In this document: positions 1,265-4,807 of the stretch, in pieces
Layout: each line of letters starts with the position of its first letter
Position numbering within the stretch: position 1 is the stretch's first letter
Source of the DNA: a virus
Lineage: Duplodnaviria > Heunggongvirae > Uroviricota > Caudoviricetes
Length of the DNA: 4,807 bases
Virus record (IMG/VR): IMGVR_UViG_2690316347_000013
Strand: one strand, 5' to 3'
Notes under the pieces: model-generated
What the model was told of the DNA's origin: nothing
Databases searched by the model: none
The model's input: only the letters and a program-made list of their open reading frames with translations
Program-made: the position numbers and the translations under genes

Positions 1265-1819
1265 TCAAAAAGCAATAACTTTTTTCTCTATACCAAAAGC
1301 CATAACCATTGGTTTGTACAAAATAAATTCTGCCACCTTTAGCCAATGCTCAATGCGTCTTTCACAGGTTCTTAAACTCCATTTCGGGTGTGCATCATTC
1401 AGCAGTTCAGCCATTTTGCGTTTGGTCATCCCCCGCCCCTCATACCGTTGCCGAAGGACGCTAATCAATCCTGGATGCTCTGCCAGCACCTCACTTATGA
1501 CCCGATCAATACATAACGCCTCTGCATCAGTACAATGCGCCAGCCAGCTCTTTTGCTTACCGTTAATCATATCCCGCAAAAAAGCCTCAAGTTCAGACTT
1601 GTTCAGACCTGCTTTTTTCATCCTCCGGAGCGCCTCGTTAATTGCCGTTTTTGTCAGCTTTTTAGAGGTCAACATCAGGTTAAACATATTCCCCGTCTTA
1701 CCGCCACCAATATACGACCAGCGCCCCCACATACGTAGTTTTCCCTGAATCCAGACACTTTCCAGCGTGGTGAGACGAAGGTGTTCTCCGCTTTTTCCTG
1801 TATTCGTTGGGTAAATCAT
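1265..1819 (-). CDS. Phage late-gene antiterminator Q-like protein (184 aa)
   Basis: ATG at 1819 overlaps the upstream gene stop as ATGA, with AGGAGG 7 nt upstream. Protein starts MIYPTNTGKSGEHL... and contains an MWGRWSY motif and a C-terminal GMTKRKMAELL...RRIEHWLKVAEFIL region that resemble 82/21-type Q proteins as I remember them. Its position directly after a YbcO-like gene is typical for Q. The track ORF start at 1939 is rejected because it overlaps the upstream gene. Confidence 0.6.
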   Translation of the reverse strand: MIYPTNTGKSGEHLRLTTLESVWIQGKLRMWGRWSYIGGGKTGNMFNLMLTSKKLTKTAINEALRRMKKAGLNKSELEAFLRDMINGKQKSWLAHCTDAEALCIDRVISEVLAEHPGLISVLRQRYEGRGMTKRKMAELLNDAHPKWSLRTCERRIEHWLKVAEFILYKPMVMAFGIEKKVIAF

Positions 1820-2106
1820 AAATATCCCTCCTTTCTCCAGATTTCTTGTGTGCGAAAAACACCTTCTGCATGCATCAGGCGTAATTCTTCTTTGGTGTAA
1901 TCGCTGGTTTTTACCCGCCCGTCGATTAAATCGTGGCACGAGCTACAGGCAATCGCTGCCTGCATATCGTGTGGCTTTATCGCTGTTCCGCACGTTCCCG
2001 CCAGTCGGTAATGCGCCAGCACAGACGTTTCCGGATCGTGATTGCAGTAGCCAGGAATTCTGACGGTGCACATCTGCCCCCGCGCCGCTTTACGTAAATC
2101 CACCAT
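1816..2106 (-). CDS. ybcO: YbcO-like DUF1364 putative nuclease (96 aa)
   Basis: MVDLRKAARGQMCTVRIPGYCNHDPETSVLAH...CSSCHDLIDGR closely resembles DLP12 YbcO (same length, Cys/His-rich). Its start overlaps the upstream stop as TAATG at 2104-2108. Confidence 0.75.
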   Translation of the reverse strand: MVDLRKAARGQMCTVRIPGYCNHDPETSVLAHYRLAGTCGTAIKPHDMQAAIACSSCHDLIDGRVKTSDYTKEELRLMHAEGVFRTQEIWRKEGYL

Positions 2107-2705
2107 TACGCAAACTCCAGCAGCTGCGCGGCCACATTTTCGACTTGTTCCGGAGAGGAAAATTTACGGAACAGAATCCAGTTCCACAGCACATTCAGAA
2201 CAGATTTATAAACCTGCTGAAACTCGGTTTCGTCCATATTCGCAAACGCGATAGATTTCGCCCGACACCCACGGCTACCGTCCGGATAAAAATGCTCGGT
2301 GTAAAATCCGGCCTGAATGGCTACCCACTCGCGGAAAGCCTCAAACGACTTTAGCAATGCCGTATCACTGGTTCTGCGTGTCGCAACTGTATTCAGATAT
2401 TGCTCTGCGGCTTCGCTCAGAGCTGGCGTATGTTCCCGGCCTACTGATTCACACAGGTAATCAACGAAACCGGACACCAGTTTTCGTTCGCGAGGCGTGA
2501 TCGCCCCACCGACCGGAGTCCAGTAATCGAAACCCAGTTGCAGGAGTTTGAAAAAACGCTTGTGGAATGCGTAGTTACACACACGCTTAAAGTCTGCGTG
2601 TATCCACTCACCTATTTTGATTTGATGCAGAAAATCGCAACTCTCCGGCGTCGCCGGGAGAAGTAATCCGGAAGAGGTTTGTTTGACCAGTTGTATATGT
2701 GCCAT
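2106..2705 (-). CDS. DUF1367-family phage protein (199 aa)
   Basis: ATG at 2705 with GGAGA 6 nt upstream gives MAHIQLVKQTSSGLLLPATPES...FHKRFFKLLQLGFDYW, the motif pattern I associate with DUF1367 proteins of enterobacterial prophage nin regions. The TTG at 2747 used by the ORF track has no ribosome-binding site. Confidence 0.65.
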   Translation of the reverse strand: MAHIQLVKQTSSGLLLPATPESCDFLHQIKIGEWIHADFKRVCNYAFHKRFFKLLQLGFDYWTPVGGAITPRERKLVSGFVDYLCESVGREHTPALSEAAEQYLNTVATRRTSDTALLKSFEAFREWVAIQAGFYTEHFYPDGSRGCRAKSIAFANMDETEFQQVYKSVLNVLWNWILFRKFSSPEQVENVAAQLLEFA

Positions 2706-2743
2706 CGGCTTTCTCCGGTGGCACGGTGTTACACAGCAGGAGT

Positions 2744-3031
2744 TCAATCCTGCTCAAGATTGTAGATGAGTTTATTCTTCAGCAAAAGCAGAAAACCAGC
2801 CTTAAAACCAATCTCTTTCAAAACCCGTAATGATGTGACAAATTCGTCCTCACGCAAAATAAAACCGTCCGTCAGAAGTCCATTACAAAAATAAAATAAC
2901 ACAGCACCGCTCTTCCTTTGTTGAGATTGCAAACATCTAATGCGGCAATGGCTGACAATCGCTCCATTCTCAACGCGCACAGCATAGAGGCCATTTTCAC
3001 TAAAAATTTCACGCAATTCTTCGATTTTCAT
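2744..3031 (-). CDS. Hypothetical 95-aa protein, AT-rich orphan gene
   Basis: ATG at 3031 with GGAAGGA about 8 nt upstream; TGA stop at 2744-2746. Protein MKIEELREIFSENGLYAVRVENGAIVSHC... has no motif I recognise. Codon usage is visibly more AT-rich than the neighbouring genes. It occupies the position that rem holds in the K-12 Qin prophage, but I cannot confirm homology. Confidence 0.55.
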   Translation of the reverse strand: MKIEELREIFSENGLYAVRVENGAIVSHCRIRCLQSQQRKSGAVLFYFCNGLLTDGFILREDEFVTSLRVLKEIGFKAGFLLLLKNKLIYNLEQD

Positions 3032-3112
3032 CTTCAGAATCCTTCCAGATAAATAGCTCTCCCCTGTTCGGGGTCCATCCCTCTTCTCCCTGCGCGCTAC
3101 TTAAGTGAGTCG

Positions 3113-3140
3113 ATTCTATCTGCGAAGGTGCGCGAATCAA
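3113..3140 (-). promoter_or_regulatory. Candidate sigma70 promoter for the 95-aa gene (TTGATT-16-TAGAAT)
   Basis: On the minus strand, TTGATT (3140-3135) and TAGAAT (3118-3113) are separated by 16 bp, immediately downstream of the hok terminator. A small CCCC-GAACA-GGGG hairpin lies in the predicted 5' UTR (about 3061-3075). Confidence 0.4.
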
Positions 3141-3150
3141 ATTCACCGGA

Positions 3151-3203
3151 AATAAACAACAAAAAACCCGCCGAAACGCTGAGAGATCACAGCGATGGGC
3201 GGG
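3151..3203 (-). terminator. Rho-independent terminator at the 3' end of the hok mRNA
   Basis: Minus-strand hairpin CCCGCC...GGCGGG (3203-3167, with inner CGCTG/CAGCG pairing) is followed by TTTTTTGTTGTTTATT (3166-3151). Confidence 0.65.
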
Positions 3204-3211
3204 TTAAGTGC

Positions 3212-3280: not shown

Positions 3281-3436
3281 TTACTTCCTGGATTCGTAGT
3301 CTACGAAGACAGCGACCTCCGTCTGGCCGGTTCGGATTCGTACCTCACAGAGGTCTTTCCTCGTTACCAGTGCCGTCACTATGACGGTTAAACAGATGAC
3401 GATCAGGGCGATTAACATCGCCTTTTGCTGCTTCAT
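3281..3436 (-). CDS. hok: Hok-family type I toxin (51 aa), HokD/Gef-like
   Basis: MKQQKAMLIALIVICLTVIVTALVTRKDLCEVRIRTGQTEVAVFVDYESRK is close to HokD/HokC as I recall them. AAGGAG lies 9 nt upstream of the ATG at 3436. Confidence 0.9.
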   Translation of the reverse strand: MKQQKAMLIALIVICLTVIVTALVTRKDLCEVRIRTGQTEVAVFVDYESRK

Positions 3437-3493
3437 AGCCTGCTTCTCCTTGCCTTTCGGCATGTAAGAGGCTAACCTACATGTGCAAAGCAT
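3281..3493 (-). CDS. mok: Mok, an in-frame N-terminally extended reading frame overlapping hok (70 aa)
   Basis: ATG at 3493 with GAGG 8 nt upstream. The N-terminus MLCTCRLASYMPKGKEKQA resembles MokC (MLNTCRVPL...KEKRA) as I recall it, and the frame is shared with hok. Confidence 0.65.
   Translation of the reverse strand: MLCTCRLASYMPKGKEKQAMKQQKAMLIALIVICLTVIVTALVTRKDLCEVRIRTGQTEVAVFVDYESRK
3450..3478 (+). promoter_or_regulatory. sok promoter (TTGCCT-17-TAACCT)
   Basis: The plus-strand sequence cTTGCCTttcggcatgtaagaggcTAACCT aligns position for position with the plasmid R1 sok promoter region as I recall it (cTTGCGCaaagcgcggtaagaggcTATCCT). Confidence 0.55.
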
Positions 3494-3558
3494 GAAATTG
3501 GCCTCAGATTAATGTTAAGCGTCTTGCCGGACGCGTAATGTTAACTGGGGCTTTTCTC
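3485..3558 (+). ncRNA. sok: Sok antisense RNA (antitoxin), about 70 nt
   Basis: The predicted start, about 7 nt after the -10 box, lies antisense to the mok start codon and ribosome-binding site (3491-3505). A stem-loop GTTAAGCGTC/GACGC..TTAAC at 3514-3545 is followed by the T-rich CTTTTCTC. Ends are approximate. Confidence 0.5.
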
Positions 3559-3612
3559 TATCTGCCTTTTGGTGTTCATGCCTGAAGCAGATAGCCTCAA
3601 GCACCCGCAGTC

Positions 3613-3642
3613 ATTCTACTTACCTCGCCAATATGAAATCAA
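3613..3642 (-). promoter_or_regulatory. Candidate hok/mok mRNA promoter (TTGATT-18-TAGAAT)
   Basis: Minus-strand TTGATT (3642-3637) and TAGAAT (3618-3613). The predicted start near 3606 coincides with the conserved GGGUGCUUGAGGCU mRNA 5' end, which is followed by an 8-bp stem (3594-3587 with 3565-3558). Confidence 0.5.
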
Positions 3643-3663: not shown

Positions 3664-4350
3664 TCACTCCTTCTCTTCTTTACCGTAGTGGAGTTGACCA
3701 ATTTTGATAAGAGGGCGTCCCTGAGATTTGCGGTGTAGATTGGTATCGCGCAGAGAATACACACAGCCACAATATTCCTGCTGATAGAATTTTTCGCGCT
3801 TGCTGATTTCAATCATACGGGACGAGCCGCCCTGCTTGCGCCAGTTATAATCCCAGTACACCATGCCCGGATAATGCGCGACGGCTCGCCGCCCACAGTC
3901 GTTAACCTGCTGCATATTTTTCCAGCGTGAAATGCCCAGTGAACTGCTGATCACACTGAAACCATTTTCAGCGGCGTACAGCGCTGTCCGCTCAAAACGC
4001 ATGTCAAAACACATGGTGCAACGGATCCCTCGTTCGGGCTCCCATTCCATTCCTTTGGCTCGTTCAAACCAGTTGTCTGTGTCGTAATCAGCATCAATAA
4101 ACGGCACGCCGTGTTGTTCAGCAAAGCGAATATTCTCATCCTTACGAATTAAATACTCTTTCTGAGGATGAATGTTCGGGTTGTAGAAAAAGATGGTGTA
4201 GTCGATTCCCGAGGCCTGAAGCGCCTCCATCACCTCACCGGAACATGGAGCACAGCAAGAGTGCAGTAGTAGTTTGTTTGCCCCGTTTGGGAGCTCCAAT
4301 TTGGGCCGTTTGAAATCAGCAACTGTCATAAATATGTTTATTGGGGTCAT
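3664..4350 (-). CDS. queH: QueH-like epoxyqueuosine reductase (DUF208 family), 228 aa
   Basis: Family hallmarks are visible: [37 protein letters not shown] and FYQQEYCGC. Start is ambiguous between ATG 4350 and ATG 4329; neither has a clear Shine-Dalgarno sequence. Confidence 0.75.
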
Positions 4351-4497: not shown

Positions 4498-4656
4498 TTA
4501 TTCAGTTCTGGATTTTGTCGCCCTGCGTATCCGCGCTTTCGCGTTACGCTCAATCTGTATCAGCTTTTCTATATTTCTCCGCCTTTCCTGTTCCTCCTGG
4601 CGCAATAGCCTTACATCATCTGCCAGTCTGGTTTCTCTTTTTGCCACAGAGAGCAT
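4498..4656 (-). CDS. Doubtful small basic ORF (52 aa), possibly a gene remnant
   Basis: ATG at 4656 to TAA at 4498-4500, MLSVAKRETRLADDVRLLRQEEQERRRNIEK.... There is no convincing ribosome-binding site and rare Arg/Ile codons are abundant. The frame stays open upstream to 4743 (…RCKICGAVVEPFDW) but without a usable start codon. Confidence 0.15.
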   Translation of the reverse strand: MLSVAKRETRLADDVRLLRQEEQERRRNIEKLIQIERNAKARIRRATKSRTE

Positions 4657-4743
4657 CCAGTCAAACGGCTCCACAACCGCACCGCAGATTTTACAGCGGA
4701 CCTGACGCTCTTTTTCGTCAACCCGTACTGAGGTAGCCTGAGT

Positions 4744-4772
4744 TTAACGGACACTCCTTCCTGAAATAGAAT
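4744..4772 (+). promoter_or_regulatory. Possible promoter for the plus-strand gene at 4793 (weak -35, TAGAAT -10)
   Basis: TAGAAT at 4767-4772 with TTAACG/TTTAAC about 17 bp upstream, correctly placed ahead of the ribosome-binding site at 4781. Confidence 0.25.
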
Positions 4773-4792
4773 GGCATCAGAAGGAGCTAATA

Positions 4793-4807
4793 ATGAGCAG
4801 AAAAACC
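4793..4807 (+). CDS. 5' end of an unidentified plus-strand gene (MSRKT...), truncated by the window
   Basis: AAGGAG at 4781-4786 lies 6 nt before ATG 4793. Only 5 codons are visible. Confidence 0.35.

Follow-up and report, generated by a model that had tools for sequence, protein, structure and literature searches.

A rem homologue behind hok/sok in a lambdoid prophage, very probably encoding an antirepressor of a DicA-type switch

Between a hok terminator and the downstream nin genes of a lambdoid prophage lies a short AT-rich ORF, and the question raised by this locus is whether the ORF is an uncharacterised gene brought in as cargo, as the original prediction had it, or a working part of the prophage's own regulation. 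We analysed it in a stretch of 4,807 nt of viral DNA, which is called the window in what follows.

The reading frame and its family

The ORF encodes 95 aa on the minus strand (2744..3031), with its ATG at 3031 and its TGA at 2746-2744. As predicted, it is preceded by a good ribosome-binding site, the Shine-Dalgarno sequence GGAAGGA (3040..3046, minus strand), which ends 8 nt before the ATG and is almost invariant in 22 distinct leaders. BLASTP comparison with Rem of K-12 (b1561, cryptic prophage Qin) showed 68% identity over 80 residues (E = 2e-34), a hypothetical protein of an O145 prophage was 81% identical, and the window protein matched phrog_340 at 6e-20. The exact 95-aa sequence is held in a public collection as protein P0001 (Shigella sonnei and others), where it was counted on 999 contigs, belongs to a 90%-identity cluster of 82 member sequences and carries a precomputed assignment to Pfam PF27490.1, PF27490 being named 'Rem'. 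A local Pfam-A search with the window protein returned no match, the Pfam copy being older than PF27490, and in the NCBIfam search Hfq (0.12) and SocB (0.0099) appeared merely as sub-threshold noise, a long way short of their cut-offs. The gene is also widespread: rem DNA was found in about 950 of the 5426 complete E. coli genomes, a relative is encoded on 455 viral contigs in IMG/VR, and GenBank phages have the homologue under the labels rem, Rem or 'prophage antirepressor'. Judged by these matches, the gene is already known and the window ORF is a member of the Rem antirepressor family, and the clear homology to a known phage protein overturns its earlier description as an orphan with no recognisable motif. 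The Rem antirepressor is carried by Shigella-type prophages and by those of many pathogenic E. coli, including Shiga-toxin-producing (STEC) strains.

The family itself is small. Only 57 matches were obtained when 1.84 billion representative proteins were searched with a profile, and the named matches and the genome loci were all from Enterobacterales. The C-terminal family core follows the pattern G..L.Y...G..GF.LR.DEFVTSL..L.E...AG, and the window protein retains each of its invariant and near-invariant columns; the first ~35 residues, a helix and a beta-hairpin, are an addition specific to the Rem subgroup that is absent from members of 59-60 aa. With the window protein, a PDB sequence profile search returned no match, and structure comparisons revealed no structural relative able to support a binding mode; a first AF2 model, built on a shallow alignment, had a pLDDT of 56 and was too poor for use.

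The rem ORF is a real coding gene under purifying selection on the protein. Compared with 30 distinct related alleles, the window allele had dN/dS ratios of 0.11-0.31 at dS values of up to 0.5, and the mean ratio over all pairs was 0.25. At dS of about 0.45, ratios were 0.15-0.3. The frame was retained in all but a few loci, with a usual length of 86 aa. Two proteins of the public collection, P0078 and P0149 (127 aa), are DicC-Rem fusions in which the first ~49 residues of DicC are joined in frame to Rem from residue 6; P0078 was counted on 8 contigs. These fusions indicate that the whole stretch from dicC to rem has been deleted in some genomes.

Position in the prophage and the partner repressor

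The rem ORF shares the minus strand with all of its neighbours, and together they are arranged like a lambdoid early-right operon. The right-edge ORF (4498-4807), which runs off the window, corresponds to a 118-aa hypothetical protein beside a DUF977 gene in the sibling locus L001 (10799-11155). It is followed by queH (4350..3664; Pfam 1.9e-65, phrog_3217) and by a complete hok/sok locus immediately upstream of rem (3281..3606; Pfam and Rfam), consisting of the hok CDS (3436..3281; Pfam HOK_GEF) and the sok region (3431-3606; Rfam sok RF01794, 117 bits). Downstream of rem are genes for DUF1367 (2705..2106), YbcO/DUF1364 (2106..1816) and a DUF1133 Q-like protein (1822..1265), and an IS911 copy, 99.4% identical to annotated copies, occupies positions 1-1258 on the plus strand. 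QueH is a prophage-encoded epoxyqueuosine reductase that sits between the replication region and hok/sok, a tRNA-modification gene as phage cargo, and among the fetched loci it was observed in window-type prophages only. The insertion point of IS911 is just past the 3' end of the DUF1133 Q-like gene, and the otherwise identical sibling locus carries IS1 at about the same place; this site may be an insertion hot spot. The source of the window is probably a Shigella-type genome.

Comparisons between loci showed that the surroundings of rem change while its place does not. Among 79 loci, hok was located at most 700 nt upstream of rem in 60, and the gene that follows rem was YdfU/DUF968 in 46 and DUF1367 in 26. 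The gene is thus a fixed element between variable neighbours, and the suspicion that synteny would reveal variable cargo was not borne out. It does not lie in the immunity region but downstream of the replication genes, where it follows a terminator and has a promoter of its own.

The repressor that would be its partner lies outside the 4.8-kb window and was deduced from sibling loci. The sibling locus L001, identical to the window over 2700-3200 by megablast, carries an intact gene for a 135-aa DicA-like repressor, together with a Cro-like gene and ydaT, 4.6 kb upstream of rem. Of the fetched loci, 46 were informative, having 7.5 kb or more of sequence upstream, and a full-length DicA-like gene was present in 41 of these, always divergent and 3-8 kb from rem; the five loci that did not have it were all IS-ridden and Shigella-type. 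One Rem type was found with four repressor immunity types, whose HTH regions are 44-62% identical to one another while the segments 51-72 and 91-end are common to them at 55-82% identity. Strict co-variation of Rem and repressor is ruled out by this pairing, which fits the cross-reactivity reported for the Gifsy antirepressors (PMC3121763) and suggests that Rem, like those, may recognise a conserved part of the repressor.

What such a pairing could mean is indicated by published work. In K-12, Rem expression increased DicA-repressed transcription from dicBp 165-fold (Ragunathan et al. 2023, J Bacteriol 205:e00129-23, PMC10448788). The filamentation and growth arrest caused by Rem require dicB or dicF, and both are gone in a Qin deletion, the overexpression phenotypes being lost on deleting Qin, or dicB plus dicF (PMC10448788). 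On this genetic evidence, which concerns K-12 Rem only, Ragunathan et al. proposed Rem as an antirepressor of DicA (PMC10448788); a 2024 preprint states that K-12 Rem relieves repression by 'an unknown mechanism' (PMC11430063), and both reports give the signal that induces rem as unknown (PMC10448788, PMC11430063). DicA, with 135 aa and no RecA cleavage site, is a repressor of the family that includes the Gifsy repressors. The latter are inactivated by small antirepressors through binding (Lemire et al. 2011, PLoS Genet 7:e1002149, PMC3121763), and physical binding between antirepressor and repressor has been shown for the Gifsy pairs only (PMC3121763).

The fixed place, the purifying selection and the DicA-like repressor upstream together indicate that rem belongs to the lysogeny switch, not to defence or anti-defence cargo. 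The original prediction had favoured the latter, an independently acquired moron for superinfection exclusion, defence or anti-defence that takes no part in the prophage's own switch, and several of the features it invoked are real. The ORF is AT-rich as described, with a GC content of 39.6% (GC3 39.6%) compared with 45-52% in the neighbouring genes, a value in the bottom 0.8% for windows of 288 nt taken outside the IS element; it has its own promoter, forms a separate module with a mosaic joint at the -10 hexamer, and adjoins the cargo-like hok/sok and QueH. An indirect effect on defence is also conceivable, because the derepression caused by Rem in K-12 turns on DicB, for which protection against some phages has been reported (PMC10448788, importance statement). 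The separate module therefore stands, but the cargo gene does not: position and presence of rem are fixed, it co-occurs with a DicA-type repressor, PADLOC returned no family at E <= 1 for the window protein or for two homologues, and the K-12 homologue, proposed as an antirepressor of DicA, has no effect in a Qin-deleted strain (PMC10448788). We therefore regard a moron dedicated to defence as very improbable.

Given the homology, the family membership, the selection, the synteny, the co-occurrence with DicA-like repressors, the real promoter and the lack of a LexA box, it is highly probable that the ORF represents rem in a Qin/Rac/Gifsy-like lambdoid prophage and encodes a small antirepressor of a DicA-type switch. 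Transcription would start at the gene's own sigma-70 promoter, which follows the hok terminator, and would pass through a highly conserved leader. Homology to K-12 Rem, together with the analogy of the Gifsy antirepressors, suggests a mechanism in which the 95-aa protein would bind the short (135-aa), non-cleavable DicA-type repressor and remove it from its operators, and the early operons would be derepressed as a result.

Promoter, leader and flanking hairpins

The hok mRNA terminator, directly after which the promoter was correctly predicted to lie, is a two-tier hairpin at 3204..3161 on the minus strand (-24.7 kcal/mol, z = -5.1), followed by a U-run (U6), as seen by folding and by comparison with K-12. 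Compared with K-12 and O145, it contains a 23-nt loop insertion that forms a second, inner hairpin (CGCUG...CAGCG). The sigma-70 promoter found by the promoter scan, TTGATT-16-TAGAAT (3113..3140, minus strand), consists of the hexamers TTGATT (3140..3135) and TAGAAT (3118..3113). It agrees with the consensus at 9 of 12 positions and is good, though not the near-consensus promoter that had been claimed. Two such sites occurred in the scanned region, a number that does not exceed chance expectation (0.9 +/- 1.0); the real support comes from the comparison of loci. TAGAAT is invariant across 82 loci, and homology between prophage types ends exactly at the upstream edge of this -10 hexamer; seven unrelated classes of upstream sequence each supply a TTGnnn, 16 nt from TAGAAT in six classes and 18 nt in one. 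An invariant -10 joined to a TTGnnn from seven unrelated classes would be very unlikely unless the promoter was used, and this pattern across loci argues that the rem promoter is real. The same two hexamers, spaced as TTGATT-18-TAGAAT, were also observed upstream of hok/sok at 3613-3642 (minus strand), where they probably form the promoter of the hok/mok mRNA.

No LexA box (CTGT-N8-ACAG) was found within two mismatches in 3040-3160, and with neither dinI nor a LexA box before rem, the gene is probably not wired to the SOS response. The conserved pattern of promoter and leader was absent from the literature that could be searched.

Taking the transcription start to be near 3106, the predicted 5' leader is about 70-75 nt long (3032..3106, minus strand). 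Almost no variation occurs in a block that starts with CTTAAGTAGCGCGC and extends from 3105 to the ATG. The leader diverges by 3-4%, the CDS by 15% and its third codon positions by 22%. Among E. coli genomes, 712 records have 95-99% identity to the leader by itself, whereas 861 have 80-90% identity to the 501-nt region. Leader comparison identified a 14-codon upstream ORF at 3034..3078 on the minus strand (MDPEQGRAIYLEGF and a stop codon), which may be translated from a GGGAG Shine-Dalgarno of its own. This stop lies 2 nt before the rem ATG in the window and overlaps the ATG (TGATG) in other alleles. Most leader variants have the upstream ORF, but K-12, L021 and L036 carry a broken version and L037/L047 a frameshifted one, and in L048/L072 it continues in frame into Rem. 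The fusion (MDPEQGECYLSGRILLM-KIEEL...) results from an extra G in the leader, which was observed in L048, L063, L065, L066, L067 and L072-L075, and the loci of this class also carry a 2.06-kb insertion between hok and rem. The peptide of the upstream ORF as the main constraint on the leader was ruled out, since K-12 and several other loci break or shift the ORF yet keep the leader hairpin.

This small hairpin in the 5' UTR, CCCC-GAACA-GGGG at 3073..3061 on the minus strand, is present as predicted, being seen both by folding and in the leader alignment. By itself it is not significant (z = -0.96), and it is paired in 97.7% of the cells of the alignment of 22 distinct leaders, with loop variants GAACA, GAGAA, GAAAA, GAGCA and AAACA that are mostly of the form GNR(N)A. 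Compensatory pairs were not found in the leader alignment, in which the only changes were one-sided, from C to U (G-U). A further helix of 8 bp could be formed in the leader by UAAGUAGC and GCUAUUUA, and the fold of the whole leader is not significant (z = -1.4). Structure in the leader is thus plausible, though unproven. The hairpin resembles lambda boxB; a nut-like boxA/boxB site was considered and rejected as a classification, since the boxA-like sequence is too far away and not conserved, and some of the loops begin with A.

After rem, a second hairpin, AGCAGGA-UUGAAC-UCCUGCU (2735..2754, minus strand), was recognised by folding and by K-12 comparison. It has a free energy of -11 kcal/mol (z = -3.0) and no U-run, and the stop of the 95-aa allele lies in its loop. 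The window has GCAGG/CCTGC where K-12 has GCGGG/CCCGC, which is a compensated change. About 60 nt past the normal rem stop are well conserved, and CATCTACAAT within this stretch is invariant (window 2735-2790, minus strand); in addition, TTGCTG-15-TACAAT in this stretch may be a weak promoter directed towards the nin genes downstream.

With a leader 4-6 times more conserved than the CDS, and conserved hairpins both before and after the ORF, one could suppose that the conserved element is mainly RNA, a regulatory RNA or a transcription signal for the nin genes, and that the ORF is incidental. This supposition is largely refuted by the purifying selection on the protein, with dN/dS of ~0.25 at dS of ~0.45. 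The motifs that distant Rem homologues have in common exist only at the protein level, the Rfam scan matched sok only and nothing in the leader, and the leader shows neither a significant fold nor compensatory covariation, so we give it scarcely any credence.

In addition to the protein-coding function of rem, the leader may have a role of its own. It might be a post-transcriptional element that decides when the antirepressor is made, and thus the missing sensor of the Rem switch, a proposal that we put forward tentatively and would not call likely. Control could be exerted by translational coupling of rem to the upstream ORF or by a small RNA. Several GGA motifs occur in the leader, one of which overlaps the Shine-Dalgarno sequence, and a GGA-recognising regulator such as CsrA is a further candidate binder. 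If true, a sensor in the leader would explain the induction of DicA-type prophages without SOS wiring. While the gene itself adds little to what is known, its regulatory part is useful as a handle on the inducing signal: the search for the inducer is narrowed to a defined promoter with an invariant -10 and interchangeable -35, no LexA control and a leader of ~70 nt, and the much stronger constraint on this leader than on the protein makes the induction of DicA-type prophages testable by reporter fusions.

The frameshifted allele and known antirepressor systems

Alignments showed that the window allele has lost one nucleotide from a run of five T in intact alleles, leaving T4 at 2792..2795 on the minus strand; intact alleles read GCTGGTTTTTCTGC and the window allele reads GCTGGTTTTCTGC. 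This deletion in the Shigella-type rem allele is a new detail, and P0003 (86 aa) is the same allele without it. The frame shifts after residue F80, so that the last six residues, SAFAEE, are replaced by 15 others, LLLLKNKLIYNLEQD, while the conserved core is intact; translation passes the ancestral TAA (2774..2772, minus strand) and ends at the TGA inside the conserved hairpin. The new tail, residues 81-95, is disordered in the AF2 model.

These changes raise the alternative that the gene is dead, the C-terminal frameshift having inactivated the antirepressor in a decaying, IS-ridden Shigella-type prophage of which the ORF is a remnant. The deletion changes residues 81-86 and adds nine more, and the prophage is visibly degraded, with IS911 in the window and IS1, IS2 and IS600 in the sibling locus. 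Other frameshifted, truncated and fused rem alleles are common in databases, and inactivating an inducer of toxic early genes would benefit the host. The window allele could indeed be inactive, given its 68% identity to the tested protein, a 4-residue insertion and the frameshifted C-terminus. However, the shift begins past the last conserved family residues, A78 G79 F80, and the minimal family members of 59-60 aa end only 5-6 variable residues past this A-G-F motif, so the protein may still work. In addition, the allele is common, as the size of its cluster and its count of contigs attest, and its promoter, leader and start codon are intact. We consider a dead gene unlikely, and the 95-aa allele may still be active as an antirepressor.

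Frameshifts of this kind were seen more than once. At least three independent ones, each at a site of its own, lead to one and the same alternative frame, and the shifted alleles all finish with ...KLIYNL(EQD/ARG), their stop being the TGA in the loop of the post-rem hairpin. They are the 95-aa window allele, 92-aa K-12-like alleles (cluster of 102 member sequences) and a 91-aa S. flexneri allele, as observed in proteins P0001, P0044/P0045 and P0138. The recurrence could be chance, or it could reflect recurrent selection for an altered or inactive Rem.

Among known systems, the closest is Rem of K-12 Qin. The order hok, terminator, promoter, leader, rem, nin genes is the same, as are the invariant -10, the nearly identical leader, the lack of a LexA box and the divergent gene for a 135-aa DicA-type repressor a few kb upstream. 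In contrast to K-12 Rem (83 aa), the window allele has 95 aa with a longer, frameshifted C-terminus, and its 4-residue insertion (SQQR) lies in the central loop between strands 2 and 3. The -35 and the sequence upstream of it also differ, the partner repressor is of another immunity type than K-12 DicA (48% identity in the HTH region), and the upstream ORF, which is broken in the K-12 leader (MVP and a stop), is kept in the window.

A more distant parallel is offered by Tum of phage 186, Ant of P22 and AntC of N15, in which a repressor-binding protein encoded outside the immunity region induces the prophage (PMC3121763), as Rem would do. These proteins are larger and unrelated to Rem, Tum and AntC are LexA-controlled, and domain, profile and structure searches with the window protein detected no sequence or fold similarity to the three.

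The Gifsy antirepressors GfoA, GfhA and GftA, and FsoA of Fels-1, are small proteins that bind and inactivate short, non-cleavable repressors of the GfoR/DicA family (PMC3121763), and the published link of GfoA to the Rem family is a two-step PSI-BLAST. A scan of the genome contigs with a single peptide pattern recovered nine loci, the LT2 Gifsy prophages not being among them. In one Salmonella locus (L084), the gene for a 59-aa PF27490 member immediately follows a dinI homologue and has a perfect LexA box, CTGTATATTTATACAG (7596-7611), ahead of it, in a prophage with a 132-135-aa HTH repressor, P22_Cro and YdaT; this is the arrangement that Lemire et al. describe (PMC3121763). The window rem differs from the Gifsy operon in having neither dinI nor a LexA box and in following hok. 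Like rem, the genes for the Gifsy antirepressors follow a terminator downstream of the replication genes and do not belong to the immunity region, and a Gifsy antirepressor can act on heteroimmune repressors, which parallels the association of one Rem type with four repressor types.
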